A DNA stretch of 64,000 nucleotides from Raja brachyura (lineage: Eukaryota), in the NCBI GenBank assembly GCA_963514005.1, contig OY740785.1, positions 28,644,001 through 28,708,000 of the forward strand, read 5' to 3'. The translations under genes and the position numbers were made by a program. Of this stretch, positions 10,370 through 55,630 are shown piece by piece. Numbering within the stretch: the first letter of the stretch is position 1; every line of letters begins with the position of its first letter. Below the pieces are notes generated by a model. The model searched no databases. It was given only the letters and a program-made list of their open reading frames with translations, and had not been told where the DNA came from.

Positions 10370-11387
10370 GTACATTAAAATCGTTAAGGAACATTAAAAA
10401 AAATAAGAACAAGGACATCCTAGTTTTTGATCTTGAAGAATACATTTACTTATTATTTAAAACCTAACTAAGCAATTCATGTTATGGAACTAGTTTATCC
10501 AAATGAATTTTTTATGTATTTAATGTATTCAAAAAGTCTGTAAACAACTTTAGATGTGGAGATCATTCTGAATGTAATTACATTTGCTGAGAAGCAGGAT
10601 TTCAGAGCCAAAGAACTTTAGATTCCCAAAATTGATTGGAGAATGACAAACAGTGCACAAATAAAATGTGAAGTACATGTTGTACGATGAATGATAAACT
10701 GCTTCATTCAGTTTCTGAGGAAGGACTTTCCAAATCTGAGGAAGGACATTATTGCCATAGAGGGAGTGCAGAGAAGGTTCACCAGACTGGGTTGTCAGGA
10801 CTGTCTTATGAACAAAGACTGCATAGACTCGGTTTATACTCTCTAGAATTTATGAGATTGAGAGGGGATCTTATAGAAACTTACAAAATTCTTAAGGGGT
10901 TGGACAGGCTAGATGCAGGAAGATTGTTCCCGATGTTGGGGAGGTCCAGGACAAGGGGTCACAGCTTAAGGATAAGGGGGAAATCCTTTAGGACCGAGAT
11001 GAGAAGGACTTTTTTCACACAGAGAGTGGTGGGTCTCTGGAACTCTCTGCCACAGAGGGTAGTTGAGGTCAGTTCATTGGCTATATTTAAGAGGGAGTTA
11101 GATGTGGCCCTTGTGGCTAAGGGGATCAGAGGGTATGGAGAGAAGGCAGGTACGGGATACTGAGTTGGATGATCAGCCATGATCATATTGAATGGCGGTG
11201 CAGGCTCGAAGGGCTGAATGGCCTACTCCTGCACCTAATTTCTATGTTTCTATGTTTCAACAGACAATCAGCTATATTTATTTTATAGGGTTATTTAAAG
11301 CAGATGTTTAAATTAAGAGTAGGAACTTAAAAACAAACAAAAATAATGTTTACATGTTATTCAAACAGTAAAGAGATAAAAGGATAT
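10370..11387 (-). other. U12-type (minor spliceosome) AT-AC intron of ZC3H6
   Basis: 5' end ATATCCTT at 11387; branch site TCCTTAAC at 10390-10383; terminal AC at 10371-10370; splicing restores frame MHG-EYPC. Confidence 0.95.
10728..11258 (+). mobile_element. CR1-like LINE 3' fragment inside the U12 intron
   Basis: LGLYSLEFMRLRGDLIETYKIL...RTRGHSLRI...FFTQRVVGLWNSLP; (TTTCTATG)n tail. Confidence 0.9.
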
Positions 11388-12323: not shown

Positions 12324-12960
12324 CTGGAATATCAGCAAAGCTGCTTAAAACAATTGCTCCCCCACACTGTTTTATTACTTGCAAATCAAAGTCATCAAAA
12401 TCATAGGCAATTAGAAGTTTACAAATCTATAAAAAATTACTATTTACAAAATCAAAGTTGTCAATATTGAAAATATGTACCACAGTAAAAAAATTATCAA
12501 TATTAATGTCTTGCCTTAAAACCAATGAAATGTCTATGCAATCTAGGATAATTTTATTAACACTTGAATAGGCAGAAAAACCAAGTCACAAAAAGTACAT
12601 TGAACGCCATAAACATTTAGAAGGGCAACATCATTTATTTCCAAAAGGTGTTTGATCACACAACGCATTTGCTAGCAAAATTAAAGCATATATTAAAGGG
12701 ACAGTGTTACATGGATAAAGAAAAAAGCTAAGAAATAAAAGGAAGAGAACAGTGGTTTAATCAGACCAAAGGATGATATGCAATTTGGATTCTGAGACTT
12801 TGTTCCAAGGACAACTGCTTAGTTTAATATTTTGTAGTTACGATTTACTAATTGAATCAGTTTGCGTCATTTGGTTTGTAATAAAAATAACAAATTTCAA
12901 AATATCAGAAAAAGCTGATGGAATTTAATTTAATTTTAAGATTGTTTTTTAAAAGTAGCA

Positions 12961-13960
12961 AAGTGGGGTACCGCAAGACTCGGTGCTGGGACCGCAGCTA
13001 TTTACAATCTACATTAATGATCTAGATGAAGGGATTAAGAGTAACATTAGCACATTTGCAGATGACACAAAGCTGGGTGGCAGTGTGAACTGTGAGGAGG
13101 ATGCTATGAGGATGCAGGGTGACTTGGACAGGTTGGGTGAGTGGGCAGATGCATGGCATATTCAGTTTAATGTGGATAAATGTGAGGTTATCCACTTTGG
13201 TGGCAAAAACAGGAAGGCAGATTATTATCTGAATGGTGTCAAATTAGGAAAAAGGGAAGTACAACGAGATCTGGGTGTCCTTGTTCATCAGTCAATTAAA
13301 GTAAGCATGCAGGTACAGCAGGCAGTGAAGAAAGCTAATGGCATGTTGGCCTTCATAACAAGAAGAATTGAGTATAGGAGCAAAGAGGTCCTTCTACAGT
13401 TGTACAGGGCCCTAGTGAGATCACACCTCGGGTATTGTGTGCAATTATGGTCTCCAAATTTGAGAAAGGACATTCTTGCTATTGAGGGAGTGTAGCAAAG
13501 GTTTACAAGGTTAATTCCCAGGATGGCCGAACTGTCATATGTTGAAAGAATGGAGCAACTGGGTTTATATACATTGGAATTTAGGATGAGAGGGGATCTT
13601 ATTGAAACGTATATGATTATTGGATTGGACATGCTAGAAGCAGGAAACATGTTCCCGATGTTGGGGGAGTCCAGAACCAGGGGCCACAGTTTAAGAATAA
13701 GGGGTAGGCCATTTACAACAGAAATGAGAAAAAACCTTTTCACCCAGAGAGTTGTGAATCTGTGGAATTCTTTGCCTCAGAAGGCAGTGGAGGCCAATTC
13801 TGTGGATGCTTTCAAGAGAGTTAGATGGAGCTCTTAAAGATATCCGAGTCAAGGAATATGGGGAGAAGGCAGGAAAGGGGAACGGATTGTGGATAATCAG
13901 CCATGATCACAGTGAATGGCGGTGCTGGTTTGAAGGGCCTACTCCTGTACCTACTGTCTA
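12961..13960 (+). mobile_element. CR1-like LINE reverse transcriptase 3' fragment with stop and frameshift
   Basis: SGVPQ-SVLGPQLFTIYINDLD...FADDTKLGG RT motifs through to the CR1 C-terminus. Confidence 0.93.
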
Positions 13961-16720: not shown

Positions 16721-17233
16721 CAAAAAAATGGAATACACAAAAAACAATATAGTTTTCTGAATATATTGCTGACCAATTTATTAAATCTATTTAGTTGGGA
16801 GTTATGTACTGCACAACAACAAATACACCCAATTCTATGACTAAAAGAAAGTGGGTAAAAAAGTTATTTTACATAGGAGAGGGCTGCAACATGCTGGATT
16901 AACTCAGCAGCACAGGCAACATCTCTGGTTAGAAGGAATGGGTGACTTTTTGGGTGGAGACCCTTCAGTGTTTTACATTGGGTTGGATCCTTATCGTTAT
17001 AGGTATCTCTGCATGGGCATACCGTCCCGGTCAGCAAATTAAAAAGATCCACATTCATGCTTTAGTTTCAAAGCATGTTTTATCTACTACACAGAAATTA
17101 TTTACAGCAGCATAGTTGAAGTAACTATGTTGTAAAAAATTAAGTATTGCATTAAAAAAAAATATATATATATATACTAACTGACCAGAAAAAGGGCGCT
17201 TTGAAAATATCGTAGCTATTTTTGGGTACCTAC

Positions 17234-17350
17234 CGCAGGGAATGGAGCATCATATTCCCTGTAGGGTGCAGGAGCTTTCTTGTATGATCTTTCCGTATCA
17301 ATATCAGAATCATAGCTGTAGTCTGAATCACCACTGGAAGGAGAATGCCG
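17234..17350 (-). CDS. ZC3H6: ZC3H6 exon 3 ([16 protein letters not shown]...REYDAPFPA)
   Basis: tag acceptor and gtaggt donor; 117 nt in frame; similar to ZC3H6 HNSPSSDDSSDYSLDSD. Confidence 0.93.
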
Positions 17351-17431
17351 CTAGAAAGGAATTAAAGTTTATTCAGTACAATATGGCCCAATATATATAT
17401 ACATATATAAAATGTGAATGCTTATTTGATT

Positions 17432-18430
17432 CTAAAGGGGGTTGGCTGCCAGTGACCAGTGGAGTTCCACAAGGGTCGGTGCTGAGCCCGCTACTCTTCA
17501 CGTTGTATATTAATGATTTGGGCGAGGGGATTGAAGGCTTTGTGGCATAGTGTGCAGGCGATATAAAAATTGGAGAAGGGGCAGGTAGTGTAGAGAAAGC
17601 AGGACTCTGCAGAAGGACGTGGTCAGGTTGGCAGAGTGAGCAGAGAAGTGGCAGATGGAACATAGTGTAGCAAAGTGTGGATTCATGCATTTTGGTAAGA
17701 GGAATAAAGGTGGTGATTATTTTCTAAATGGGGTGAGAATCCAGAAATCGGAGGTGCAATGGGACTTGGTAGTGCTGGCGCAGGATTCCCAAATAGTTAA
17801 TCTGCAAGTGGAATCGGTAGTAAAGAAAGCAAACTCAATGCTAGCATTTATTTGTAGAGGGCTTGTGTACAAAAACAGGGATGTAATGCTGAGGCTCTAT
17901 AAGGTGTGGTCAGGCCGCATTTGGAATATTGTCAGCAATTTTGGGCACCATATCTGAGGAAGGATGTGTTGGCTCTGGAGAGGGTCCAGAGGAGGCTTTC
18001 AAGAATGATCCCAGGAATTAGTAGGTTAACCTATGATGAGCGTTTGTTGGCACTGGGCCTGTACTCAATGGAGTTTAGAAGAATGGAGGGGGGGCCTCAT
18101 TGATACATACAGAATAGTGAAAGGCTCGGTTATTGTGGATTTGGAGAGGATGTTTCCACCGGTGGGAGAGTCTAGGACTAGAGGTCATAGCCTCAGAATT
18201 AAAGGACGTTCTTTGAGGAAGGAGATGAGGAGAAATGTCTTTAGGCAGAGAGTGGTGAATCTGTGCAGTTCTTTGCCACAGAAGGCTGTGGAGGCCAAGT
18301 CATCGGATATTTCTAAGGCAGAGATAGATAGATTCTTAATTAGTTCAGGTGTCAGAGATTATGGGGAGAAGGTAGGAGAATGGGGTTAGGAGGGAGAGAT
18401 AATTCTAATTCTACTCCTATTCCTTATGAC
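17432..18430 (+). mobile_element. CR1-like LINE RT 3' fragment, disrupted
   Basis: [26 protein letters not shown] ... VRPHLEYC..FWAPYLRKDVLALERVQRR. Confidence 0.92.
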
Positions 18431-18682: not shown

Positions 18683-20119
18683 CTGTAGAAACGATTATCA
18701 GCAGCATAGAAAAGTCACGCCATACTCAGGTTTACACATTCATCATTGAAGTTTTAGCTGGGTAGTTTTTTTTAATGTTGTATTAAGGTTGGCTTTTAAA
18801 AAAAATCTGTCAAACTTTCTTCCAAAAAAAATCCACAGAAAATGGTCCATTGTACTAGACATGTGCTTAATGCTGACTAACTTCATCTCTTGCAATAATC
18901 AGAAATTGTGCAAAACCATGCCTCAAGACAACATTGTTACAATGAAAGAAATATAGTAAAATAAAAAAGAGCAAACCGTACCAGATACACAAATTACCTA
19001 ATAAAAATGCCCATAGCTAGCACAAGACAACCAGCAAAGAGTAAGCTAGTAGACCCATCAAGCTCACCCTGCTAGTCCATAAGTTTATGCTCATCTATGC
19101 AGGCATCAATTTCTCTTGTCGGTTTCCCCATAACCCCCAATTCATTGTCCCCTCAACTATTTACCCATCACTGTAAATATTTCTAATAATCTTCGCCTCC
19201 ATCACTTTCTGCAACAGCATTCTAGAGTCACTCTTCTGATAAAACATTGCTACGCAACTCAGTTTTAATCACCAGCCCCTCGTAGTTATGTCCTTTTATT
19301 AAAGACTCTCCCACTTATGAGAATATCTCAATGCCCACCTTCAGACTGACTGAAGGGGGGGGTTTAAGAAAGAGAGGTGGGTGTCATCTCTCCGTGTTCT
19401 CCAGAGATGCTGCCTGGAATGCTGAGTTTCTCCAGCAATTTGTGTCGTCCTTCGGTAAACCAACATCTGCAGTTCCTTGTTATTTCAATATCTACCTTGC
19501 CAGGCCCTTGAGACTTTATAATGTTTGATTAGGGTTATATCTCACTCGTATACACACAAAGGAATATAGGCCCAAACTGCTCTGTCTCTCTTGTTCGGCC
19601 AGATAACCCTCTCGTATCCGGAATTAGCCAGGTGATTCTCATTTGAACTGCATTCATGAAAGTATCACATAATGAATGTATCCAGAACTTGAGGCACTTT
19701 TGGCAACCCAGTAACTTTCTACTTCCCCATGTACCAAGGTCTATTCAAAGCAGTAAAATTCCATCATACGTGCAGAGCAGCTCATTGGTAGAAACACTTC
19801 AGAGTAGAAGACAGAACCAGACAGTCTATTTTATTATGTCAATGAGTTGGACAACATACTTTGTTAAGACAATATTTGCGGTGACCAAAGTTCAACTGGA
19901 AACAGAACCTGCTGATTATACGTGTAGCAATTCTGGTAACACGTTCATAAAAATAAACAAAGCGATGGATTTAGGTTAATTTAGGATTTATGTGGCGGTG
20001 TTGAAAACATAAAGCCAGTTTGGGGATAGCATGGAATTCCATTAATCATTTATGAGTTAACTTTTGATTATGAAAGCATGCTTCAGTAAAGATGCATACA
20101 AAACCTTACAAGACATTAC

Positions 20120-20372
20120 AAGTAGTCTGAAGAAGGGTCTCGACCTGAAATGTCGCCCATTCCTTCTCTCCAGAGATGCTGCCTCACCCGCCCAGTTACT
20201 CCAGCATTTTGTGTCTACCTTACAAAATATCAGTTGTCAAAGATTATAACTCTACCAATGTATCAGGAACAAAGGGTACACAAAAGGCAGGAGAAACTGA
20301 GCGGGTGCAGCAGCATCTAAGGAGCAAAGGAGATAGGCGACGTTTCGGGTCGAGACCCTTCTTCAGACTCTG
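20120..20372. mobile_element. Inverted pair of Penelope-derived short repeats with hammerhead-like cores
   Basis: CTGAAGAAGGGTCTCGACC(T/C)GAAA(T/C)GTC at 20127 (+) and 20366-20339 (-); same motif ends the Penelope fragments at 37.8 and 49.3 kb. Confidence 0.75.
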
Positions 20373-23300
20373 TTCAGGAACAAAGTTTATTTGCATCTTT
20401 TAACAACTAGTCAAGATATATGGATACATCTCTGAAACTTACCATATGAGTGTAGAGTAGCAAAAAGACTCAAAATGAAAAACTCAGATCACTCTTCCAA
20501 TTAAAGAGATAATTCAGGTAAACTAACCCAAGTACATTGTGGCCTCGCTATTCTCAAAGGATATGGGCATGGACATAACCCCCCCAAAAAAAAAGCTGGT
20601 AAAGATACTAAGAATGCACCTGTTAATACCTCCACAGATATAATTTATTTTATGTTTCAGTTTGTACATAAACCTACCCTGTTCGTGACTATATGAGTAC
20701 ATAGATGGCAAATGAGCAGATAATGGGGATATGTGTACTTTTTGAAAGTACAACAGTATCGCTACCACTGCTCTGCATGCTCTTGCGTGTGTCATGGCCA
20801 GAACTGGCATGCAGAGAGGAGAAAACAAACATAATTTAGGAGATATCTTGTTAATTTAACCATATAATTACTCCTTTACTGTCATTGGGACATAATCCTA
20901 TAATTGGAGGCCTTGCAGCAATTGCTGCAGTTCTTTAATATAAAGGCTGGAGCAATGATTGCTTACTGCCAACCTCAAGGGATAAGGATGCACAATAAAT
21001 ACCGCCAGCTATGCCAGCACCCAAATGAATAATCCACTAACTTTAAACAATTTTGTTACTCAAATTGTAGCGCACATTCTGTTAATGTTCTGTGTCGAAA
21101 GGAGTGCACAAAGGTTAAAATAACATCAATCTTGTTGCTGTCACTGATTTTAGAGCAACATTTCCCTCACTCCACCACAAAATGTGTTTCCCCCATAGAC
21201 GTCAATGTTGGTCTTAGACTCAACTGCCTCTTGCCATCTGTTTCCTTGCCAGTGAAACAAACCTTAATTAAGTTCTAACAGCAAATGCTAACCAAAATGA
21301 ACACAAGAACAGGGAGAGGGGTGGGAATAGGCCGATTGCCAAGGATCATTGAAACCCAGAGCTAGAGCTACTATTACCCAAATTACCCACTGATTTAAAA
21401 ATAACAGTAGCATTTCTCTACCACTATAAAGTTCCATAGTACCATAGCACTTGACTCAATGATTTGCTGGATAGGTTGCTGCCAATTTGCCAAAGTCTAA
21501 GCACTGTAAATGTAGTACACAAAATTAACACATTTAATTCAATTAATTTTGATAAATACCCATGATCTGGTTTAGTTTAGAGATACAGCGTAGAAACAGA
21601 CACTTCAGCCCACCAAGTCCATGCCGATCATCAATCTCTCTACACTAGTTCTGGATTTTTGATGACACGAATACCTAGTTACAGACTTCTGCATAACCTT
21701 CTAATTTTCTTTCTATCTTGTAACAGCCAGGTTCCCTTCAGTCAATGCTATTATCTCCAGTATCCAACAGAAAGCCCTGTTCCTCTCCTTCGTTTTTCAT
21801 GAACTTGCCCAAGTACTAATATCCAAAACAAAGCCGTAATTTATACAAAAACATAATTGTCACCTTGCCGTAACCCATGACCAAAGTTCCAAAGGTACCC
21901 CTGTTTTACCCATAAACACTTAATTTTCATCATTTACAAATATCATTAGGTATACTTAATATGAGATGCCAATCTAATGTACCACATACAACTCCATGCC
22001 TGCTAAACATAAAAGTAGTGTGCAATAGACAGAGCTAAGTAATCCCACAATTAGGTTGATCGAAGTTCAGCAACCCTACAGCCGATTATGATTCACTGAT
22101 TAAGTACCTAATGGAAGAAAATATTCAAAATCAATAATAATCTGATACATGGATGCTAATGATACAACTAAAACACTCATAACCACCTTCAGCCAGAGGT
22201 GCTCAAGGGATAAGCCACCTCAAGATTCCTCCTGACAAATGTCAGTCTTCAGCCAATTCTATTTACTTCATGTTGTAAGAAGTCATGAATCAGCTGGCAG
22301 TGCTAGATATTGCAAAGACAGTAACATCCCAGGTGTAATATATAGAATTATGCTCCAAAACTAGACCCACCTCCAGCTCATCTGTTCCAGTGCAGCTGCA
22401 CCATGCATCAACCCAAGAACATAGAAAATTGTCCTGGTACATCCGTTCCCAAAAAGCAGGACAAATACACTCCAGCCAATCATGACAAAGCCAGCCTACT
22501 TTCAAAGTAGTTGATCCCTGCATTATGGAGTGATGGGAGGGGGCAGGGGTGGGTAGTTCATTCTGGAAAAACTGTTTATACCCTGATTTTAGCAACATGA
22601 AATCCTACCATCTGCACAGGCAACAAGATATGAAAGTTGTAAACAAATATTTACTTGTTCTCACAAATTTCATGAGTGAATTTCCATTACCCCTGAGCTA
22701 GCATAACATGGGGAGCTTCTGTACTGGAAGGTTTTGTCTACAGTGTAATCAAGCAGCGTTTATTCACCAAGAACCTCCTCATCAATGTCCAATTTAAGAT
22801 TGAGTATGGATATTCAGCTTCAGTCCTCATCACAGACTTGGTCCAAACATTGGCCAAAGAACTGAATGTTCTACCTATACCCGTAACACCAAAGGATTAT
22901 TTGTCCAAGTAAGGCATTCCCCTTGATGTTAGTTTAAGAATCTTTGGAGAAACAAGTAACTGCAGGACGGTGCAATCTTGAGTAAAATGCAAAGTCCTGT
23001 AGTAACTCAATGAGTCAGGTAGCATCTCTGGAGGGAGAGGAGGGACATTTTGGTTCGGGAACCTTTCCTCAGATTCCAATTTTTGGTGTTACAGTTAGCA
23101 CAGAGAAAGCTAGATATTCATTCGAAGGTTAAACTCCTAACTGCAGGATGATTGCTACAATAGCTCCTCAGTGTGGACCTAGGCTCAAACCTTTTCAGCT
23201 GCCACATTAGTGAACTTTCTTCCAACACAAAGTCAGAAATTAGGATGTTTTTCCTATTCAAAGCTCTTCTACAAATGAAGCAGTGCCTTGACAATATGTA

Positions 23301-24046
23301 GGTGTGGTTGAAAAGTGGCAATGGATACTTGTACCACAGAAGCGCCAGCCATGATCATCTCTAAGAGTTAAATCTCCAACTCTTGGTAAATCAATAAAAT
23401 TACCATTGTTAAACCATTCACCATCTTCAAGTGTCACCGTTCATCAAAAACGCAATGAGAAAAATACTGTGGCTATCGGTTGAATGGGTATCTAATGCTG
23501 AGCAGTTCATCTCCTGACACCCTAAAGCCTCAGCTATCTACAAGGTACAAATAAAAAACACAAATAGCAAACTAGTTTCTAAACCGTGTAAGAAGGGAAA
23601 TATTACAAACCAGGACAGGATAAATATTTGAGAATAGGGAAATAAAGTTTTCATGACACAAAAAAATTGCCTGAAAATAGTGGTGTAAAGTGAACGCAGA
23701 GCTCAAAGAAATTAGGTAGACATAAAATGGTGGAGTAACTCAGCGGGACAGGCAGCATTTCTGGAGAGAAGGAATGGGTGATGTTTTGGGTCAAGACCCT
23801 TCTTCAGACTGATGTCAGGGGAGTGGGTGGGACAGAAATCTTTTCTGGACCCCTTTCTGATCAAAGAAATCAGTATTAGTTAAAGAAATGTACATAGTTA
23901 GAATATTGGTCTTTATTGCATGAGGATTTGAGTACAAAAGTAGACTGTGTTGATATAGTTATATTTAGCCTTAGTGAGACCACATCTGAAATATTGTGCA
24001 TGTCTAGCCAGCTACATGATTCACGCAATATAGCCAATGTAGTGAA

Positions 24047-26207
24047 GAGAGGGAGGGAGAGAGGGGGTNNNNNNNNNNNNNNNNNNNNNNNNNNNNNNNN
24101 NNNNNNNNNNNNNNNNNNNNNNNNNNNNNNNNNNNNNNNNNNNNNNNNNNNNNNNNNNNNNNNNNNNNNNNNNNNNNNNNNNNNNNNNNNNNNNNNGAGT
24201 GAGAGGGATGAGGGAGAGAGTGAGGGGGAGGAAGAGAGTGAGAGGGGGGGGAGGGGACGGGGGAGAGGGGACGGGGGAGAGGGGACGGGGGAGAGGGGAC
24301 GGGGGAGAGGGGACGGGGGAGAGGGGACGGGGGAGAGGGGACGGNNNNNNNNNNNNNNNNNNNNNNNNNNNNNNNNNNNNNNNNNNNNNNNNNNNNNNNN
24401 NNNNNNNNNNNNNNNNNNNNNNNNNNNNNNNNNNNNNNNNNNNNNNNNNNNNNNNNNNNNNNNNNNNNNNNNNNNNNNNNNNNNNGAGAGGGGAAGGGAG
24501 AGAGGGGAAGGGGAAGGGAGAGAGGGGAAGGGGAAGGGAGAGAGGGGAAGGGGAAGGGAGAGAGGGGAAGGGGAAGGGAGAGAGGGGAAGGGGAAGGGAG
24601 AGAGGGGAAGGGGAAGGGAGAGAGGGGAAGGGGAAGGGAGAGAGGGGAAGGGGAAGGGAGAGAGGGGAAGGGGAAGGGAGAGAGGGGAAGGGGAAGGGAG
24701 AGAGGGGAAGGGGAAGGGAGAGAGGGGAAGGGGAAGGGAGAGAGGGGAAGGGAGAGAGGGGAAGGGGAAGGGAGAGAGGGGAAGGGGAAGGGAGAGAGGG
24801 GAAGGGGAAGGGAGAGAGGGGAAGGGGAAGGGAGAGAGGGGAAGGGGAAGGGAGAGAGGGGAAGGGGAAGGGAGAGAGGGGAAGGGGAAGGGAGAGAGGG
24901 GAAGGGGAAGGGAGAGAGGGGAAGGGGAAGGGAGAGAGGGGAAGGGGAAGGGAGAGAGGGGAAGGGGAAGGGAGAGAGGGGAAGGGGAAGGGAGAGAGGG
25001 GAAGGGGAAGGGAGAGAGGGGAAGGGGAAGGGAGAGAGGGGAAGGGGAAGGGAGAGAGGGGAAGGGGAAGGGAGAGAGGGGAAGGGGAAGGGAGAGAGGG
25101 GAAGGGGAAGGGAGAGAGGGGAAGGGGAAGGGAGAGAGGGGAAGGGGAAGGGAGAGAGGGGAAGGGGAAGGGAGAGAGGGGAAGGGGAAGGGAGAGAGGG
25201 GAAGGGGAAGGGAGAGAGGGGAAGGGGAAGGGAGAGAGGGGAAGGGGAAGGGAGAGAGGGGAAGGGGAAGGGAGAGAGGGGAAGGGGAAGGGAGAGAGGG
25301 GAAGGGGAAGGGAGAGAGGGGAAGGGGAAGGGAGAGAGGGGAAGGGGAAGGGAGAGAGGGGAAGGGGAAGGGAGAGAGGGGAAGGGGAAGGGAGCGAGGG
25401 GAAGGGGAAGGGAGCGAGGGGAAGGGGAAGGGAGCGAGGGGAAGGGGAAGGGAGCGAGGGGAAGGGGAAGGGAGCGAGGGGAAGGGGGAGGGAGCGAGGG
25501 GAAGGGGGAGGGAGCGAGGGGAAGGGGGAGGGAGCGAGGGGAAGGGGGAGGGAGCGAGGGGAAGGGGGAGGGAGCGAGGGGAAGGGGGAGGGAGCGAGGG
25601 GAAGGGGAGGGAGCGAGGGGAAGGGGGAGGGAGAGAGGGGAAGGGGAAGGGAGAGAGGGGAAGGGGAAGGGAGAGAGGGGAAGGGGAAGGGAGAGAGGGG
25701 AAGGGGAAGGGAGAGAGGGGAAGGGGAAGGGAGAGAGGGGAAGGGGAAGGGAGAGAGGGGAAGGGGAAGGGAGAGAGGGGAAGGGGAAGGGAGAGAGGGG
25801 AAGGGGAAGGGAGAGAGGGGAAGGGGAAGGGAGAGAGGGGAAGGGGAAGGGAGAGAGGGGAAGGGGAAGGGAGAGAGGGGAAGGGGAAGGGAGAGAGGGG
25901 AAGGGAGAGAGGGGAAGGGGAAGGGAGAGAGGGGAAGGGGAAGGGAGAGAGGGGAAGGGGAAGGGAGAGAGGGGAAGGGGAAGGGAGAGAGGGGAAGGGG
26001 AAGGGAGAGAGGGGAAGGGGAAGGGAGAGAGGGGAAGGGGAAGGGAGAGAGGGGAAGGGGAAGGGAGAGAGGGGAAGGGGAAGGGAGAGAGGGGAAGGGA
26101 GAGAGGGGAAGGGGAAGGGAGAGAGGGGAAGGGGAAGGGAGAGAGGGGAAGGGGAAGGGAGAGAGGGGAAGGGGAAGGGAGAGAGGGGAAGGGGAAGGGA
26201 GAGAGGG
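24047..26207. repeat. Polypurine minisatellite, mainly (GGGAAGGGGAAGGGAGAGAG)n, with two N gaps
   Basis: 20-bp unit from 24486 to 26207; 14-bp GGGGACGGGGGAGA unit at 24250-24345; central GAGCGAG variant block. Confidence 0.97.
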
Positions 26208-26319
26208 TCCAAGTCAGTGTGGCACCCCGGAGCAGGAGCTGTTCACGGGTCACCCTCACGGGGGAAGAACGCTACCCTGCCGTCAATTAGCTCCCCCCCC
26301 CTCCCCACACTACCAACAC

Positions 26320-26545
26320 GCAGCGGCACGGTGGCGCAGTGGTAGAGTCACTGCCTCACAGCGCCAGAGACCCGGGTTCTGACTGTACGGAGTTTGTACC
26401 CGCTTGGGTTTTCTCCGGGGGCTCTGGTTTCCTCCCACACTCCACGTTTGCAGGTTAATTGAATATGTCCCAAGTGCGTGTAGGCTAGTGCATGGAGCAT
26501 CGCTTCAATGGGCCGAAGGGGCCGTTTCCGCGCTGTATCTCTAAA
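26320..26545 (+). mobile_element. tRNA-derived SINE with internal deletions
   Basis: gcggcacggtggcgcagtggtagag...gacccgggttc head; gggccgaagggcc...gctgtatctctaaa end. Confidence 0.8.
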
Positions 26546-26599
26546 GCTGCGCTACCACAAAACCCGCTAAATAGCCCGCTGCACGGACCGTGTAAGAGC

Positions 26600-26668
26600 T
26601 TGCTGCGGGCCGGATAAAGTCTGGTGGTGGGCCGGATGTGGCCCGCGGGCCATAGTTTGGAGACCCCT
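26600..26668 (+). mobile_element. Isolated right end of a hAT/Charlie-like element
   Basis: gggccggat-tggcccgcgggccatagtttggagacccct is a typical hAT MITE terminus. Confidence 0.55.
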
Positions 26669-27829
26669 TCTTTAGAGCTTAAAATAATAGAAATTGTATG
26701 ATTGAAATATTGTTCAACAGGGAACATGGAGATATGTTGTTTCCTTGGTTAAGGTACCCAGGACTAGGTGTCATAGCTTCAAAACAAACATCAGCCATTC
26801 AGGACAGACGAGAAGAAAATTCACCACCGAGAAGTACAACTTTAAAAATTGTCTAACCCTCATGGCTGTAGAGGTCAATGGTAAAATTGGCTTTAGGAAC
26901 TGAAAAGCTTATTCCTACTTCAACTTATGCAACTATGTGATGCAATGCTCTCCAATTACTTGATCAAGTATAGCGATGAGATCGACATCATCCAGGACAA
27001 AGCACTTCTCTTCCTTGGAACCCTACTCACCATTGCAAACATTCATTCTTCCACCATCAATGCATTGTGACAGCAGAATATGTATCATTCACAAATGTTC
27101 TGCAGTTATTAGTCTAGGCTGTTCCATAAGCAGTATCGCCCAAACAAGAGATCACCACGTGCTAACTGTGTGCATGGCACACCATTCTTACTGAGAAATC
27201 TATCACCCTTTGTAAATTATTGTATTAAACGCTAGCATAACATCCCCAATTTTATTGACTGTCACAAGCATGACCTCAGCTGTTCAAATATAGCTCAATC
27301 ATTTTCAAGGACAATTAGAGTTAGGCAATAAATGTTGGCCTTGCCTATGACGCTCACATCTAAAACATTAAACTCAATTATTAAAAACCTCATACTACAA
27401 GATCTACTTTACTGCTTTTGAAATTGAATGAGTTAAATGGATCCCATAACACCAGGAACTGGAACACTTTATGGTGACCACTATAATCTACACAGCAAAG
27501 TTTTAACTGGCTCAAAAACGTCTCATCACATACTTTACATTAATAAACATGCACACACTTGTCCAGCCCTATCACTTTTTCTCCCATCATGTATAACAAT
27601 AAAACTAAATGTCTAAAACAGTTTATTCTTTTGTTATTGTTATTCTTTTGCTAAAGTGCGACCTTTTGTAACTAATTCAATTATGCCACAGAAATTTAAT
27701 TGCAAAATGTATTCTGAACATGTATAATTTCAATAGTAAGTACATTTTTGTGCGGCAACTCCCAGAAAAAAACATTTTACTAATGTTGCCACTAACTCTT
27801 CCACCAATCTATGCTGTCACATTTATGAA

Positions 27830-28040
27830 CCTGAAGGACAACATTTTCTATACACAGTGGGCATGTGGAATGAGCTGCCAGGTGATAGTTGAGACAGGTA
27901 ATATAACAACATTTAAAATACATTTAGACAGGTGCATGGATAGGAAAGGTTTAGAAGAATATGGGTTAAAATGCGGGCAGGTGGGACTAGTACCGATGGG
28001 GGTCAGCACAGGGAAGTTGAGGCAGAGGGCTTGTTTTGTG
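27830..28040 (+). mobile_element. CR1-like LINE 3' end, decayed
   Basis: Translates to TTFKIHLDRCMDRKGLEEYG, similar to the 52.4 kb copy. Confidence 0.7.
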
Positions 28041-31000
28041 CTGTACGACTATAAGATGTCAAAGTTTGTTTTCTCTGCCCTGACTCATGAAGGCAAGGAT
28101 GCCACATGCCTTCTTCACCAGCCTATCTTCTTGTATTGCCACTTAAGGAATTACAGTCTTGATCCCCAAAGTATACCTATTCATCAACATTCCTGAGCGC
28201 TGTACATGTTATTGTATATGTATGTCCTACCTATATTTAAGTTTGCAAACTCCATCGTCTCTCACTTGTTGGGATAAAATCCCATTTGATAACATTCCAC
28301 CCAATTTTCCTGATCTATATCCTGCTGTCGCCTTAGATAATCTCTCTTGCTATACACACCAGCAACTTGTGTAATTGACAAACTGCAGTAAAAAAAAAAT
28401 CCTTCCAGCACAGCCCTGTCTCCTACCAACTTTAGATCCAGTTTGTCAACATGCCTCAAAGATTCCTTGCACCTTAATCTTCTGGACCAGACTACTTTGC
28501 AGGACCTTGTCAAATGCCTTACTGATGTTCAAATGAACAACATCTACTGCCCTGTTCTCAATGTTTTTAAAGTTACCTCCTTTTAAGTGGTATGCAAGCT
28601 GTGGTCTGACTAGCACTGTGCAGTCATAGCATATTTTCCCTGCTCTTATATTCTGTTTTGGCTAGTGAAAGCATGATTTCATTAACCAAAGCTCTTTATC
28701 TTACTGACCTCCTCTGCTACTTTTAATTATAAATGGAAACACATCCAATGTTCCTCCACACTACTCAATTTCCTTCCAGTTCTCTGTACATTTGTTCATC
28801 AATCATTCACCTGGGGCATTTAGAAGTAAATTCATAATCCTGACCCAGAATTTAATGAGCAAGTTTGATAAATGCAACCTAAGCAGTCACACAAGAGAGT
28901 GGCCAATATAATGATACAACATAGATTGACCACGAATTTAACACCAGCAGTGTAAAAAAATGTTCAATATATACAACTATAAAAATTAATGGAAGCATAA
29001 AAACATAAAATGCCAATATCTTGGATTTTGAGGAGGGTCAAATGGAATAGTAAAGAATGGTACTCGTGGCAATAGAAATAACCATCAATTGTAAAAGTGA
29101 CTGAAAACTTCAACAGCATGGAAGAGAGAACTGTAGGCAGAATCTGAGGGGTGAGAATGTTTAATGTTTCTTTAGAACAATAAGATCAAACATATTGTAT
29201 GAATTGGGTTTGATGTAGGTTGGATAAAGGTGATGCCTCCCATGACCCAAAACATACCAATTTACCAACTATATGAAAGAAAATGTGAGGGGTAAATTAA
29301 CAATGTAGTTATTTGGCTGCAGAGACAAAGGATTCTAGATATTGATGAAGTAAAATGGAAATAAATTGTATTTTGTCCTGATAACAAAAGAAAAGCACAA
29401 AAAAGCAGTACATAAGAACATAGTAGTAGGCCATCGTGCCCCTCAAGTTTGCGCTGATTCAATAGAAAATAATGACGGATCCATGCGGACCTAAATTCCT
29501 TTTCTATCCCCATTACCCTCAATCCTTAATTTCCACCTTAAATATATTTAATGATCTGGCTTTTGTCAGCCTTAGAAGCAACGAATTCCTGATATTCACA
29601 ATCCACAGAGGAACTTTTACCTCACATCAATTTTAAATGATAGGTGCCTTATTTTACAAATATGTCCCTGTATTGGTGACTTTACCACTAGAGAAAACAT
29701 ATCAACACCTGTCTGTCAAACCCTCTGTATCTTGCATGTTTGAAAAAGGATTTCCTCACTTTTCTAAATTTCAAGAAATATACTCATACAGGAAAGAAAC
29801 ATGAAAATAATAAAATGAGAATTTGAAGTGTAAGAAATAATTGACTACAGTAAAAAGGACTGATGGGGTCAGATGGAAAATCATTGAACAGTCTTAATCT
29901 GTTTTAAAAAACACATCAGCCCAATTTCATGTCTGCAATAATTCTCAAAAATGTGAATTTACTTATAAACGGGCAAAAAAAGTCTAGTGTTATTCAAAAA
30001 TTCTTCAAATTTATTTCAAAATTCAGGATTGCAAAATGTAAAAAACAAGCATTTCCCCAAAGTTTTCATGCTAATAGTATTTCAAGAAGCAAACATCCAA
30101 AAAAGATGTTCTGATAAGGTGATTTGATTGGTTACTTATAAATGGAAACTAACTTTATTTATTTAACACAGTACAATGTGGAAAATAATGAAGAAACTCC
30201 AATCTTATAACTGTTATAACGCTGTGTACACAGTACATGCGAATGATTCAGATAACTGATGAAACCAGTGTGTTTCAGTTTCAACTGATAGGTTGTAATG
30301 CAAGACAGCTTCATGTAGACTATGCAAATGTATAACTGTATGTACCACACTATTCATACACAGGACATTTAATAATTTTGAACTTTGCATTGTAGGCTTT
30401 GTCTGAAAATGGGTGTGATGTTAAATAATACATGGCTTGATACCCCAGCAAAAAAAGCTATTCTGGAGGCTATTAATTCAAATGACTAAAACATTTTCAA
30501 TTTTACTTTGGAGTTCAAATCTTCAATTTTGCTGCAAATCACAGGAAAATGAACACCTGCAAAACTATACAAGCTAACATTCCTACATTTTTACAAAAAG
30601 ATGACCCTGACCAAAAATGTTTGCTGCACATGAAGGCTAAATTAAAATGGGAAAGGTTAAAAATAAACAATGATTATTAATAGCCCAGATACCATTACTC
30701 TTGCACTCAATTCAAGAATCAAGGGAACAAGCAAATTGCACAAGCTACTTGATCAATTGCATCTCAGTTCAGTCAACCTTTCAATAGGTCAACAAGCCCG
30801 CTATCATTTGTAACTGCTATTATAGAAATCAAATCTATGAATAAAATTCACCTAACAATTTTGGTCGTCGTACATTTATAGCAGTACATGTTTAAACCAT
30901 AGTGGGTCTGCGTGAAGTTCAACTACTTGAATTAAGAGAAGTTCCAATCTGAATCAGCATATTTTGTTCTTGCAATCCCATCATAATTTTCCATTGTAAG

Positions 31001-34000
31001 ATATACTTATCTCACCGAAATATAGCAAGGAACTACATCAACCACCACGTATCTATTTTTACACTTATCAAGATCTAATCTATCTATATTCCCACAAATC
31101 TCCCCAGGTTTAATCATGCATCTCAATTTCCACCACTCATGAAAGCATATTCATGTCACTTCCAAGCTGGCCACTTACCAGTATCTATTCAACTGGTTGC
31201 CCATAAAACAACTGACAGATCAGTCAATGTGGATATCAAGTCCATCAAATCCAGTTCTGCCCTCAGATGGTGCAAAGATTCTAATTACCGAGGATAACGG
31301 CAACAGTAATCAGAAGCAGAAACTCTGCTCCATGCTGAGAATAACTGTACTTGCTCAAGACATGCAAATAGAGTTCAATCAACAATCACTGAAATTGAAT
31401 TCAGCAGTTTAGTGAAGTGATTTATTAATGAAAACAAATGGAAACATGGAATGCAACTGAATGGCACTTGCATTTTGCATTGAATTTTCAGGCTGAATAA
31501 AGTTCACTTGCAAATCAAGACTATTATTAGCTTTCTATATTGCTCAACAATTAAAGCACAGAAGCACATCTGTGATCAGCTATTTTTCACATGGGCAGTC
31601 AAGGCAAGGCAATGGAGGCAAGTGCTCCTGGGAATTAGAACCGATTCCACTGCCAGCAGCAAATTATACAAAAGCATGTGGAACCACCTGATTACTTCAT
31701 TGTTATACTTAGAGCATAGTAGCAACAGGTTTTGGGCTGGTATGTAAAGTATTAAGTTTAATCAAGACAATGTCAATACTGCTAGATTACACATTTCTCA
31801 TTTGTGTGTAACTTGTACACGAGTGGAAAAAGCCAAATTGGAGTGGAGTGACATTATTAAGAAGGGAAACTAACAAACAAAATATCTCGGTATCAGTGGA
31901 CCTGCACTTCATTAGCATGCTTTGACAATACACAAATAATTTGGTGTCATGTCATGCACTAAAACCTACATCTAAATGTGACAGAATTGTTAAGGTCTAC
32001 TATAATGAAAAGTGGTAGGGGCCTCATATCTGCAAATATAAAAGACACACACTGAAGACAAAGGCCATTTAATTTTACATTAAGCTTTAGAACCCCCCCC
32101 CCCCCCACACACACACACACACACATAAAGTCTAATCCTACCAAAGCATTGGGGACATTTGTAAATGTATAAATGGTCTGAAAGGAAATATCCTATTTTA
32201 GTGTTTTGCTACATTCTACATCCACCAGATCATTCTGAACATCCACATTTTTGGTTATAATTAAGCAAATGTTTCTGGCCTCAAGTATACTACATGATGG
32301 TCTAATATCATAACTAGCTTGGAGAAATTAATAATAATGTTTAATATTAAATTTACTTGAAGTGCTAACTGCAAAAGCAAATGTCTTTAATTTCCTAATT
32401 GCTCCAAGCCATGATGATCTCACTGTTGGTAATATTCTATTACAGAAAATAGGTTAAAAATCTGTTCCCTATTGGTTTTTGTAATTGTTTTTTTTAAAGG
32501 AGGCACGCATTCATGCAAGGCTGCCTCAGATAATTAGTGTTGCACTTAAAAACAATTCTGTGCAAAGATCAGCAACAGTCAAGTCCTAAACCTAAGGTGG
32601 AGAACATGGCAACATTTGGAATGAAGGACACCATCATAGAAAATGCAATCTTTATGAACAAAGAGATAGATGGAGAAGTACCCAGAAAATTAAAAAAAGT
32701 CTTCAGTAGGGCAGCAAATTTTTGGGAACCTATATTTTTGGTACATCTTAAATGACCTCAACAACATGGACACACTGACACGGCTCTTCACCTCTCAATA
32801 AACTATTCTGCACTCGTTGATATTGAAAGGGAATTATGTAAAGGTAACCATCTATAATGATAACCAGTCTTATGTCCACTCCATCGCTAATTTGGCATAC
32901 ATGCCAATAACAGCATTCCATTGTAATATTAATGTTTTGAAAATTTAAGCATAAACATATTTTAAAAATGCTGCATCTTTAAAACATGAACTCTATGGAT
33001 ATGACCATGAATAAAATAGGAATTTCTGCATGTGATTCCGGCTGAAAATCAATCAGCATGGACTTCATTGAAATGGCCAACTTCTGTTCCATAATATGCC
33101 CTATCTCTAATCTAAAAATATTATGAACTAATAACCTAGGACTTCATGCAGATCCAACTATAATTTGGCCACAAAGGCAGAAAGTTTGAGCGAAAAATTA
33201 TGTCCCGTATTAGTATTACTCCCACCTAACTTTGCAGAAGGGACCAGAATGATACCAACTACATTAAATTTGATGGGCATGTCTTCCCCACCATTAAGAG
33301 AAATGTTGTTAGAACATCTATTACATTTAGTAAATAAAAAAGTACAAAGTGAATGGTTGGGGAATGTCTTTTGGGATGTTTCATCAAATTACATTTCCCA
33401 TTTAACAAGTAGCTGGTTAAGTAATCTCAGCGGGCATTAAGATTCAAACTTTTAATATGTGACACTGGAACCATGTGAAAGCCAAACAGATTATCTCTCC
33501 TTTTGGGTGTAAACCATTTGCCTGTTTAATAATGATCTGGCAGTTTGTGCTTTACGGCTGGACAATTATCAGATTTTTTGAAGCACATTCTGACAGGATA
33601 GGAAAGTGACTTTTGGTTAAAGGTTTAAATCCCACCATGGCAAATCGTGGAACTGAATCACTGAGTGCAACTTTTGAGGGAACTGAATCAGAGGGTAATT
33701 ACATTTAAAACACATTTACTATTCTATTCTGCCCCTCACAACAGTATCATCTCCAAGCTCACAACCTGGTTGCGCTCACCGTTTGTGTTTTTATTTTAAT
33801 AACTGATGTTTACTGAGACTCACTGTTGATGATGAATGATACCATTTTGTTGTAGTTTTGAAATGGAAAACAAACATTAAGATCAACTATCCTTCCGCAG
33901 AATAAATGCCTATAATCAAAAATGTTGCAGGAATCTCAAGTTTGTCAATTTACTTTTTGCCAAGACTAAAATTAAGCTATCTACTGCACTAGTCCATTGG

Positions 34001-35196
34001 GAAAACAGTTCACATTTGAAACCGCTGTCTGAATTGAGAAGTTGTCACGGAACCTCGTTTATTTTTTACAAGGGAGGGAGGTGAGAAGGGTGAGAGTTGT
34101 GCCCAAGTTAATTGACGACGCTACGGGGGTCCCAGAAGTCCACAATGTGTAGTACAAAAACAAGTAATGTATGTACTCAACACAAGTACCTGTATCAAAC
34201 TGTCAATTATCGACAGTACGGGGGAGGGGTGCAACAGCAAAATGATCTGCATATACCAAAACGGCACGCGTTATTTAACGCGAGATCGATTATTAAAAAA
34301 AAGTTATAGATTTTGTTACTCGGGTATGTTTGTTTGTTAAGAGTTTTCCTTCTGCAATAAGCAAAGGGAAAGAAGAAACGAACAATACCATATTTTTTCG
34401 GGCATGCTATAAATAGACCTGTGGCAAATTGATGTGACAAGTCTGGGAGTAAACAATTTAAAAATAATTCAAGGTTAAAAGGAGAACACTCGAATCGTTT
34501 TAGTTTTCCAAATTATTCCATGTGATAAGTGCTTGTTTTCTTTTAGAAAAGCAGTTTTTTTTTGGAGGGGGGGAGGGGAGGGGAAGGACTTCTTTTCTCT
34601 GTGCTCATGGGTATATCAGTGTGGCAACATGTCGGTCACACCATTGATTCACATAAAGGTTCACTGCCAAAATGGAGGTTCTAATCCCATGAAGACGACA
34701 TGAAACCGGATCACCCCGACTTCGAGAAGAGGCTTCGTCGACCCAGAATAGACAGAACAATTCAAATCTCGTTACTACATAATAAATCAAAAATGATCTC
34801 TCCCCACCCCCCTCCCCCTCCTCCTTATTTAAAGAAAAAACTCACTTATTTTTGAAAACTTACCACAATGAGGTGTTTTTTAAATGGACGAATGAATATT
34901 GTTTTAGATATTTTTTTAAAAGCCAAGCATGCACAACTGTTTATATATTTTTTCCAAAAAAAAGGACAGGAATAATAGCCCTACCCAGCATACATTTTTT
35001 TTTTAACTGTAAAAAGAGAAAGAGAAATACAAACTGTATAGTATTCACATCCCAGGAGCTGATTTTCCCCCGGAAACAAAAGTTAAAAATTAAAGCAGGT
35101 AGAGAGAAAAGAGAGAAGAGAAAGAGAATGGCAATGTTAAAACTTAATTTTTAAGAATAATTTCAGAATGGTTGAGATATAAGAATGTTACTCGAC

Positions 35197-37504: not shown

Positions 37505-37890
37505 ATACTCCCCATTCCGAATCCGACCTTTCTGTTTTGGGTCTCCTCCATGGCCAGAGTGAGTTCCACCGCAAATTGGAGGAGCAGCACCTCATATTTT
37601 GCTTGGGTAGTTTACACCCCAGCGGTATGAACATTGTTTTCTCCAATTTCAGGTAGTCCTTGCTTTCTCCCTCCTTCCCCTTCCCAGCTCTGCCACAGCC
37701 TACTGTCTCTGTCTCTTCCTTTATCTTCCCCCTCCCCACCCCCCCCCCCCCCAAATCAGACTGAAGAAGGGTCGCGACCTGAAACGTCACCTATTCCTTC
37801 GCTCCATAAATACTGCCTCGCCTGCTAAGTTTCTCCGGCATTTATGTCTTCGTTCGATTTTTCCAGCATCTGCAGTTATTTCTTAAACAT
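37505..37890 (+). mobile_element. Penelope-like element 3' fragment (GIY-YIG C-terminus, pLTR with hammerhead core)
   Basis: HSESDLSVLGLLHGQSEFHRKLEEQHLIFCLGSL.PSGMNI.F; CTGAAGA..GAAACGTC at 37761-37788. Confidence 0.8.
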
Positions 37891-39988: not shown

Positions 39989-41284
39989 TAAAATAACATC
40001 CCAGCACAAACTCATGGATTGTAATTAAAAACTATCAGGTTCATTCAATTCTGCTGTATTTGTTTCGTCTGAGTGGAATGAGATTCCAAACCCATCTTAA
40101 CAGCTTCCTCTGTTTAGGGGTAATTTGAGATGTTCAATAAATGCCAGCTTTGCTAGCAGCATCCACACCTGGCAGGTGAATAAATAAAATAAACCTGATC
40201 CAATACCGAGCTCCCTTGCATCTTGTGTAAATGTTCGGATAATGTATTGTAATTTCCTCATCTGCAAGAATTCTTGCTGTAAAATGGAGTTTAAACAAAG
40301 TGCAGGGGTAGTAAATCAGAGCAGAAAAGGGTGAGAGAGTTTTGTGTTTGATAGTGAGGAAGAAGGACTGCAGTTGTGATTGAGAAGAAATTGTAAACTG
40401 AGTAGGAATAAAGACAGGGTAAGGATAGATGGCATTAAGGTGCCATTTGAAAAATGCTGACGAAAGGCTCCAAATGCTCAGTGGGACAGTCAACATCTCT
40501 GGATAGAAGGAATGGGTGATGTTTCGGGTCGAGACCCTTCTTGAGCCGTGAATGCTTACAGCTGTACAAAAATGCTGATGATGACGGTGACTGGGCTGGG
40601 AATTGAAAGGGATGGAAGCAACAGTGCTGCTTGCTGTTCAGAGACTGCATAGCAAGGTAAATAAATTAAGCAATTTAAGTACATTTTGAAAGAATGAATT
40701 GGGAAGGAAATAAATTTGACATTGAAACTAGTTGAGTTTTTAAAATTCATGTATATTCAGATATATATTTTAAAATTCATACTGTCATGTCTACCCTATG
40801 GGGATTAAATTAGAACAATGACAACATGTCATTTTGTCATTGCAACTATATTTATGCCTGCCTGTAACATTGGATCATTTTTCTACAACATTTTTAACCC
40901 TTTACAAGCTTGTGTAGAAAAAATACAGATGCTGGATTACACTGAAGATAGACACAAATGCTGGAGGAACAGGCAGCATCTCTGGATAGAATAAATGGGT
41001 GACGTTTCGAGTCGAGAAGGGTCTGAAGAAGGGTCTCGACCCGAAATGTTGCCTCTTCGTTCTATCCAGAAATGCTGCCTGTCCACCATTTATGTCTATC
41101 TTCGGCATCTGCAGTTCTTCCTACACAAGTTGTATAACAAATTTCAGGATGTCAGAAAGAACATGTAAACCATAGTAACCAATGTATAGAATAGAATCTC
41201 AGAGTTACAAGGAGCTGCAAATATTGAAATCTTGAGCTATATACTGCGTGTTGGAGTAACTCAGCAGATCAGGCAGAATCTGCA

Positions 41285-48786: not shown

Positions 48787-49365
48787 CGAACACCTCCACT
48801 CAGTCCGCAATAACCAACCCGACCTCCCGGTGGCTCAGCACTTCAACTCCCCCTCCCATTCTGTATCCGACCTCTCGGTCCTGGGCCTCCTCCACGGCTA
48901 GAGTGAGCAACACCGCACGTTGAGGAACAGCACCTCATATTCCGCTTGGGGAGTCTGCATCCTCTGGGCTTAAACATTGAATTTTCTCAATTCTGTTAAC
49001 CCTGGCTGCTTCTTCCCCTTCCCACCTCTCCCTCAGCCCTCGGGCCCTGGCATTCCGTCTCTCTCTATCTCTCCCCCACCCAAGTCGCACTAGCTTCTCA
49101 TTTTCACACTACAAACAGCTTACAATGGCCTGTTTTCTTTATCATCGATACTTTTTTGCATATCTTTCATTCATTGTTCTTTATCTCTCCACATCACCAT
49201 CTATATCTCTTGTTTCCCTGATCCCCAACCAGTCTTAAGAAGGGTCTCGACCCGAAACGTCGCCTATCTCCTTTGCACCTTAGATGCTGCTGCACCCGCT
49301 GCGTTTCTCCAGCCTTTTGTGTACCCTCGATTCTCCATCATCTGCAGTTCCGTCTTTAACACTTA
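48787..49365 (+). mobile_element. Penelope-like element 3' fragment with 13-bp TSD, inserted in a Rex1-like tail
   Basis: EHLHSVRNNQPDLPVAQHFNSPSHSVSDLSVLGLLHG; AGAGTTTATTGTC duplicated at 48774-48786 and 49366-49378. Confidence 0.85.
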
Positions 49366-55331: not shown

Positions 55332-55630
55332 AGGAGACAGCAAGGGTCAACAGAATTGAGAGAACATTGAACATTTTGAACATTGAATTCTCTCAATGCT
55401 GTTGACCCTTGCTGTCTCCTCCCCTTCCCACCTCCCCCTCAGCCCTTGAGCTCCTCCTTTTTCCTTTCTTCCCCCCCGCCTCCCCCCACCCCCTATCAGT
55501 CTGAAGAAGGGTTTCGACCCGAAAAGTTACCTATCACCTTCGCTCCATGGATGCTGCTGCATCTGCTGAGTTTCTCCAGCATTTTGTGTACCCTCGATTT
55601 TCCAGCATCTGCAGTTCCTTCTTTAACACT
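55332..55630 (+). mobile_element. Penelope 3' fragment with 5' inverted duplication and hammerhead-like core
   Basis: aacattgaattctctcaat...gctgtctcctcccc matches the Penelope end at 48970; CTGAAGA..GAAA at 55501-55524. Confidence 0.7.

Follow-up and report, generated by a model that had tools for sequence, protein, structure and literature searches.

Minimal hammerhead ribozymes (min-HHR) in the pseudo-LTRs (pLTRs) of fish Penelope-like elements (PLEs), solo and opposite-strand copies of these units, and elements with tails and inverted ends are already published. In fish, min-HHR were reported in Neptune, Poseidon and Xena elements (Cervera and De la Pena 2014, PMC4209133); the available sections of that paper name no cartilaginous fish. 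The motifs described there have a type I core with an extra base between positions 9 and 10.1, a G10.1-C11.1 pair and a palindromic 15.2-16.2 stem without loop 3, and they are mostly solo in the genome, with some opposite-strand pairs. The ray repeat analysed here is alike in all these respects. However, its stems I and II have 2 and 4 bp compared with 4-5 and 7-8 bp in the schistosome motifs (a D. virilis variant also has a 2-bp helix I), and an estimated million copies here stand against about 4,000-9,000 motifs in coelacanth and Xenopus, by counting methods that differ.

The element also resembles the endonuclease-bearing EN+ PLEs of the Neptune/Nematis type, as described in the available parts of PMC8557442 and PMC3846280, in having a reverse transcriptase (RT) with a C-terminal GIY-YIG domain, a Zn-finger-like linker, partial tandems, 5' truncation, an adjacent inverted copy, a tail of 30-40 bp and target duplications. 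Unlike in those accounts, an insert of the pLTR only is the dominant product here. Rotifer solo pLTRs are ascribed, in the sections at hand, to recombination or deletion, whereas the solo copies here carry their own duplications. In the Penelope element of D. virilis, the start site lies inside the pLTR, with an internal promoter containing Inr and DPE (PMC2377424, in part).

A further likeness is to the Poseidon element PAc of Anolis (Frangieh et al. 2024, PMC11167929). The available parts of that paper describe two internal RT starts that bound the tail, uncut RNA as the main template, and protein-assisted cleavage. PAc is from another PLE clade and its ORF starts inside stem II, whereas here the ATGs are at +54 and +167. 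For PAc, no RNA reads are described at the cut site, while here genomic A-tailed junctions mark it; the activity of PAc has been shown, while the element here is known from sequence alone. In the sources covered here, PLE minimal hammerheads are described as cleaving weakly in vitro or with the help of protein, and no RNA ends are reported at the cut.

Non-LTR retrozymes (PMC7229834, bioRxiv 10.64898/2026.07.22.740005, both in part) share with the repeat a type I hammerhead, a non-coding nature and a kinship to PLE pLTRs. They are described as head-to-tail units of about 150-450 bp, with mostly canonical active ribozymes and circles. In contrast, the copies here are dispersed, either solo or head-to-head, and not bounded by the cut site.

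In the openly accessible main texts covered, we found no account of run-off pLTR copies of PLEs, of a cap-derived G or of A-tailed junctions at the cut site. A shark and ray genome-size preprint does not contain Penelope, PLE, SINE or LINE as whole words. The locus itself is ordinary; the copies across the genome provide a lead on where the RNA of a PLE begins and on whether its hammerhead cuts.

Two copies in intron 1 of ZC3H6

Units are numbered so that +1 is the A of AGUCUG, and the predicted cut is after +31. The window is the whole stretch of 64,000 nucleotides that was analysed. The features around the motif are as follows.

18685..35180, minus strand: ZC3H6 intron 1, containing copies A and B; boundaries approximate, from tblastn
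20273..20369, minus strand: copy B, a short PLE pLTR copy of the young subfamily, +1 to about +97, 97% identical to young copies
20339..20366, minus strand: minimal type I hammerhead core of copy B, from C3 (20366) to C17, by sequence and pairing
20374..20385, minus strand: 12-bp target-site duplication of copy B, 5' copy
20263..20274, minus strand: 12-bp target-site duplication of copy B, 3' copy, overlapping the element end
20124..20222, plus strand: copy A, short and from an older pLTR subfamily, spanning +1 to about +98 and lying antisense in the pre-mRNA
20103..20111 and 20217-20225, plus strand: 9-bp target-site duplication of copy A, 5' and 3' copies
20121..20373, minus strand: hairpin predicted by folding in the pre-mRNA, in which copy B pairs with copy A over about 95 bp

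The motif at 20369-20339 on the minus strand reads AGU CUGAAGA A GGGU CUCG ACCC GAAA CGUC, i.e. CUGAAGA, an extra A, a 4-bp stem II with a 4-nt loop, GAAA and the ACGU palindrome. Its stem I has 2 bp, a U.G plus a G-C, and from these letters the cut is predicted after 20339. The minus-strand sequence bears out what a first-pass annotation had claimed, namely that a core runs from C3 at 20366 to 20339, that this copy is intact (catalytic letters and stem positions are all unchanged) and that it has the minimal type I anatomy, with an extra base after A9, a palindromic stem III without loop and a weak stem I. At E<=5, an Rfam covariance-model scan matched no hammerhead family; the assignment is thus based on the motif and its relatives and not on a covariance model. 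The Rfam miRNA and mraW matches are far below their cut-offs and lie on hairpin-forming sequence, those at 55.3 kb on the inverted PLE end; they were discarded.

Between the 5' duplication of copy B and its +1 there are four extra bases (20373-20370), the last of which is a G, and in copy A there are 12. The hammerhead letters of copy A (20127-20154) retain the catalytic positions, with C11.1>U and C15.2>U in stems II and III. Read on the plus strand, 20273-20369 (the antisense strand of copy B) has by eye a loose likeness to the A and B boxes of Pol III promoters, with a spacing of about 53 nt; ARAGORN and Rfam found nothing.

The host gene is ZC3H6, with ray proteins as its best matches at 85% and 83%, as would be expected of a batoid cartilaginous fish. 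Its first two coding exons (35291-35181 and 18684-18628, minus strand) flank copy B, which is thus sense to the pre-mRNA, as had been proposed. This orientation, the intronic position and the retention of every core and stem letter would all suit a copy that cuts or regulates the ZC3H6 pre-mRNA. However, the antisense copy A follows about 50 nt further on, and the hairpin between the two has a predicted energy of -152.8 kcal/mol (z -17.4), with none of 200 shuffles equally stable. The whole core of copy B is predicted to be paired with copy A, so the hammerhead would be buried, and no activity is predicted for it here. Nor was a nearby same-strand intact partner found for copy B. Moreover, 33 of the 192 near-complete copies sampled are equally pairable, and therefore about one intact pairable copy is expected per locus. 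Cleavage of the host RNA by copy B is thus very unlikely, and a regulatory role is hardly credible; the ZC3H6 copy in itself is ordinary debris.

An HMM trained on copies from the window detects 27 in total, which cover 1,950 bp or 3.0% of its length; each of five block-shuffled windows used as control gave zero matches. All 19 repeat positions listed in the first-pass annotation are recovered, and copies at 14.9, 41.2 and 58.1 kb are additional to them. Among 12 near-complete window copies, all catalytic letters are retained in four, and every stem position is also unchanged, by eye, only in the one at 20369 on the minus strand. In the wider sample the core is intact in 66 of 192 near-complete copies, and the stems are pairable as well in the 33 mentioned above. 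Longer and paired copies in the window are:

48816..49363, plus strand: longer 5'-truncated copy that retains the C-terminus of the endonuclease, the 3' UTR, a hammerhead at 49231 with G5>U, and the tail to +133
37511..37890, plus strand: longer copy of another subfamily with endonuclease C-terminus, 108-nt UTR, hammerhead at 37758 and tail
55332..55630, plus strand: copy with UTR, 5' inverted segment (55332-55364), hammerhead at 55498 and tail
40952..41084, no single strand: two short copies arranged head-to-head, with their junction at the 5' edge of the hammerhead
58322-58432 and 48005-48102: similar head-to-head pairs

Other features of the window are:

24046-26380: purine-rich tandem array in intron 1 of ZC3H6, about 2.3 kb long and repeating every 20 nt
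62348-62753: about six tandem units of 72 nt each
10672-11260, 12959-13834, 17185-18386, 36406-36702, 59288-60336 and 61688-61977: presumably CR1/L2-type LINE reverse transcriptase ends, by resemblance; the LINE-like fragments include two near-identical pairs (93-98%)
3614-4049, 47379-47594 with 55126-55327, and 56501-57062: inverted repeats with arms of 62-108 bp, possibly small DNA-transposon derivatives
43715-45272: open frames, possibly exons of an adjacent gene; the one frame tested has no Pfam match

Parent element and genome-wide abundance

Upstream of the repeat, near-identical long copies continue through a UTR rich in pyrimidines and into the terminal part of a GIY-YIG endonuclease. 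The same 92 nt are found 98-329 nt past the GIY-YIG stop in 13 of the 21 endonuclease ends in the sampled DNA, and four of the five large sequence clusters contain endonuclease-linked members. The unit occurs both behind the endonuclease stop and before the long ORF of full elements. In the locus L084 these are joined in a partial tandem of endonuclease end, UTR, hammerhead unit and then the start of the long ORF; L087 is a second partial tandem that forms pLTRs. Because the unit adjoins endonuclease ends, takes part in partial tandems and shares clusters with them, we identify the repeat, by sequence, as the hammerhead-bearing pLTR of a young autonomous Neptune-type PLE with RT and GIY-YIG domains. 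Its PLE identity is practically certain, and the Penelope origin suggested by the first-pass annotation stands.

In one locus, a 920-aa open frame contains RVT_1 and GIY-YIG, both below the Pfam cut-off there; in L005 the GIY-YIG match is above it. The frame also has a DKG motif and a C-x4-C-xx-C linker (in the translation of L061). A CX2-5CxxC linker between RT and endonuclease is a trait of Neptune and Nematis (PMC8557442, available sections). The Neptune label is a provisional one drawn from this linker, which is common to Nematis; no named reference RTs were among the matches. The family is young, as each of the 150 scored endonuclease matches has 99-100% identity to the query.

Of seven near-full elements extending as far as the motif, five start within +1..+28. 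ATGs are found at +54, opening a 41-codon frame, and at +167, opening 770 codons in L087; an intron at a GT near +166 was considered and is unneeded, as the ATG at +167 already opens the long frame. The 41-codon upstream frame overlaps the long-frame start in all five near-full copies (L084 and L087 among them). In the unit of L084 (482-615, i.e. +1..+134) a stem of +51..+59 with +109..+117 appears to be conserved in every subfamily seen, although the bases between its arms vary. The 5' half of the hammerhead is predicted to pair with the end of the tail (z -1.6). By folding, this stem and this pairing may be an RT-binding fold and an off-state of the ribozyme.

The genome was sampled in 80 stretches of 10 kb at round coordinates (800 kb). 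This sample contains 333 matches covering 3.25% of the bases, with at least one match in 69 of the 80 stretches, in agreement with the high abundance claimed in the earlier reading of the window. If the sample is representative, the genome as a whole would contain about 1.1 million copies. One 34-mer alone has 22,245 exact matches genome-wide. For the young subfamily, the 800 kb contain 39 cores, five UTRs, three endonucleases and no RT. In contigs of four sequencing runs the repeat is present and the depth of the core is far above that of the ORF in all four, and in one unlabelled, probably DNA, run the difference is about 160-fold or more. Neither element ends nor an intron joint were seen among the rows listed for contigs of these four runs, whose nature as RNA is a guess.

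For annotation this means that about 3% of the sampled DNA consists of PLE stubs which would be misfiled as SINE. Inverted pairs such as copies A and B would also form long intronic double-stranded RNA.

Ends of the short copies

Both short and long copies have their 3' ends concentrated at +96-99 and +131-134. The distance between these two sites agrees with the PLE tail of 30-40 bp, which Frangieh et al. attributed to two internal RT starts. The 5' starts of 174 non-inverted copies pile up at the other side of the unit, with 61 at -3..+5, 28 at +6..+15, 14 at +16..+25 and three at +31..+33; 25 lie beyond -30. Among inverted copies this far-upstream class is inflated, as one reference contained an inverted copy. 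The pile of short copies at +1 is three bases ahead of the hammerhead core.

The base that precedes +1 is also informative. Exact copies of the 34-mer have the template C in 17,781 cases and another base in 4,464, of which 2,356 (53%) are G, while at the control junction at +4 a hand count finds G in 18 of the first 100 rows listed (p=2e-12 against +1). When 30 C-preceded loci were re-read by eye, 19 continued into UTR, four were inverted and seven solo, while 30 G-preceded loci gave one with UTR, 13 inverted and 16 solo. A duplication could be resolved in three of these 16 solo copies, and all three read duplication, one G and then the unit. Reverse transcriptases can copy the cap as a G. The G excess before +1 fits run-off copies of the start of a capped, uncut mRNA.

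Target duplications of 10-17 bp were found in 17 of 54 solo young copies, a set that was enriched for +1 starts by the searches. In these 17 resolved insertions, extra bases adjoin +1 in 11 cases and the 3' end in four. An exact duplication of at least 9 bp is present in only 10 of 45 solo copies.

Many copies are paired. Head-to-head pairs comprise 114 of 320 copies, many centred at +1, and among the neighbours within 300 nt of 289 copies, 60 are head-to-head, 14 tail-to-tail and 12 same-strand. In L143, L167 and L173, head-to-head inserts found at different places have the same junction and the same 3' flank; these were probably copied as part of another repeat. The near-palindrome around +1 may attract junctions by itself, and the pile at +1 could then come from fold-back or annealing of the cDNA at this site, or from an antisense template as in rotifer PLEs. 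The abundance of head-to-head pairs centred at +1 would suit the former, and self-priming on an antisense template has been argued for in PMC3846280 (available parts). However, the same pile is present among non-inverted solo copies, the G excess is specific to +1 and the extra bases are on the +1 side, all of which speak against such origins. We regard these explanations as improbable, and instead an RNA of the element that starts at +1 is quite probable.

The short copies were described in the first-pass annotation as a retrozyme-like SINE family. In such a scheme, the units would form a separate non-autonomous family with transcripts of its own, which the hammerhead would cleave to monomers or circles and the PLE enzyme would put back into the genome. 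It is true that short copies outnumber long ones (39 young cores against three endonucleases in 800 kb) and that one old cluster of 15 copies has no endonuclease-linked member in the sample. Tandem retrozymes derived from PLE pLTRs, and present in one chondrichthyan, are also described in the available part of a 2026 preprint (bioRxiv 10.64898/2026.07.22.740005). Here, however, head-to-head neighbours outnumber same-strand ones by 60 to 12, the ends are at +1 and +97/+133 and not at the cut site, and long copies have the same 3' ends. Head-to-tail arrays, which characterise retrozymes, are not the arrangement of the sampled copies, nor are their units bounded by the cut site. A SINE would have a Pol III head derived from tRNA, 5S or 7SL; ARAGORN finds no tRNA and Rfam gives no match, and no poly(A) tail was seen at the 3' ends. 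Thus the copies are SINE-like in size and number but lack these defining traits of both classes, and since the same unit is also found behind the endonuclease stop, the earlier classification is not supported. We consider a separate family very improbable, although rare true arrays elsewhere in the genome are possible.

Possible traces of cutting and a proposed life cycle

If the hammerhead cut its RNA, ends would be expected around +31 and +32. Pattern matches for 5' ends number 238 at +32, 202 at +35 and 101 at +29, and the solo fractions are 9/31, 5/20 and 5/20, respectively. Scaled in this way, there are about 69, 50 and 25 solo ends, i.e. a weak excess at +32; the counts at +35 and +29 rule out a large peak. 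For 3' ends at the cut site there are 52 pattern matches compared with 223 at +34, and all 12 that were inspected run on, so these were rejected. Most inserts are therefore likely to have been pasted from uncut RNA, as there are no real 3' ends at +31 and few 5' ends at +32.

The bases joined to +32 are of another kind. AA precedes +32 in 17 of 100 listed rows compared with 2 of 100 at +35 (p=4e-4). This comparison was picked post hoc, there is a single usable control position, and the signal comes from about nine loci. At other positions, AA is found at one of 37 junctions of the loci collected, and both AA rows at +35 are templated or within a duplication. All 17 AA rows at +32 and one AG row were inspected. 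Eight of the 17, plus the AG row, have untemplated A-rich tails of at least 3 bases, while the others are short, templated, inverted or ambiguous. These nine loci are A-tailed exactly at +32. In L333, L326 and L215 the tail follows the element's own core, trimmed by 0, 1 and 3 nt, respectively; in L328, L334 and L336 it follows sense pieces of the ORF, in L335 a poly(A) signal, and in L332 and L337 other sequence. Extrapolated, there would be about 20-25 A-tailed +32 copies against 22,245 whole copies. To form such joins, an RNA end must be free at +32, which cleavage by a hammerhead would provide; they are a likely trace of such a cut, with RT pausing as the alternative.

In L322, L323, L325 and L305, the sequence attached to +32 is itself a piece of the element's 5' region from further downstream. 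The rejoined pieces end near +55, +204 or +274, or are the whole +32..+92 unit, as small circles or jumps of the RT would give.

Can the motif be active? The elements of a min-HHR core are present (CUGANGA, GAAA, UH, the extra base after A9 and G10.1-C11.1), and the stem III palindrome, ACGU here and AGCU in relatives, would allow a dimer. The dimer helix adds only -3.1 kcal/mol, and stem I, with 2 bp, is short of the 4-5 bp of min-HHR; a further 2 bp past a 2x2 loop are possible only in the context of the 3' pLTR. Folding of the monomer gives no hammerhead (z 0.23), and the minimum-energy fold is a small weak hairpin that ends at +32.

The conservation of the core does not stand out plainly from that of the 3' flank. 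Across clusters, 3 of 31 columns are variable in +1..+31 compared with 16 of 56 downstream (p=0.057, or 0.03-0.18 depending on clustering), and two of the three variable core columns are CpG sites. The lengths of the upstream UTR vary from 98 to 329 nt. Within the genome, stem II shows no covariation. Further away, 26 endonuclease loci from metagenomes gave nine regex matches, of which L225 and L226 are ambiguous and four on the opposite strand were set aside; the remaining three of the 26 have the same architecture about 100-500 nt downstream, with different but pairing stems. Their hammerheads have a 4-bp stem I and ACGU or AGCU as stem III:

L227:594, L241:891 and L243:1274, metagenome contigs: distant minimal hammerheads with 4-bp stem I, downstream of GIY-YIG genes

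These three would be better candidates for in-vitro assays than the ray motif.

The motif could instead be a catalytically dead relic, kept because it overlaps an internal promoter or a protein-binding site, and the A-runs at +32 could then come from RT pausing at the small hairpin or from DNA repair. The 2-bp stem I, the non-hammerhead fold with its hairpin ending at +32, the lack of excess of 3' ends at +31 and the weak excess of 5' ends at +32 agree with a relic, and so does the internal Inr and DPE promoter of Penelope (PMC2377424, in part). Against it, the A-tailed joins to foreign RNA-like ends are at the exact predicted cut, the young subfamily retains all catalytic letters, and distant relatives keep the fold with changed stems. 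A relic, together with such an origin of the A-runs, seems rather unlikely, and on balance we lean slightly towards a hammerhead that, judged from these junctions, cleaves rarely in vivo.

We suggest that the best explanation, with a probability of about three in four, is that the repeat is the pLTR of the element and that its short copies are run-off cDNAs from an uncut, probably capped RNA start, with rare cutting by a hammerhead that is predicted to be inactive at the locus in ZC3H6. Pol II would start at +1 in an initiator-like YCAGT, which would explain why only 3 nt precede C3. The RT-endonuclease would nick host DNA and, by analogy with the anole PAc, prime internally at +97 or +133. 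Priming on the 3' pLTR of a read-through RNA would give the long 5'-truncated copies. Priming at the 5' end of the mRNA would instead run off after 97 or 133 nt, the cap often being copied as a G, and the products would be SINE-sized inserts with duplications of 10-17 bp, or head-to-head pairs. The hammerhead would need a dimer and probably the help of a protein. Its rare cuts would leave a free end at +32, which ligation or RT jumping would join to A-tailed RNA ends.

It can be tentatively speculated, at less than even odds, that the million copies are a fossil record of this cycle. Priming by the RT about 100 nt away from the cap would be followed by run-off, the hammerhead would be the first 31 nt of the mRNA, and a rare cut would decap it; the products would be trimmed, oligo-adenylated, rejoined to the 5'-OH end at +32 and then copied into DNA. 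The junction counts give predictions at the level of single bases: a start at +1, priming at +97 and +133 and a cut after +31. They bear on whether the minimal hammerheads of PLEs cut in vivo, and why. If true, the fossil-record reading would be a direct trace of the cutting of a PLE minimal hammerhead in an animal.
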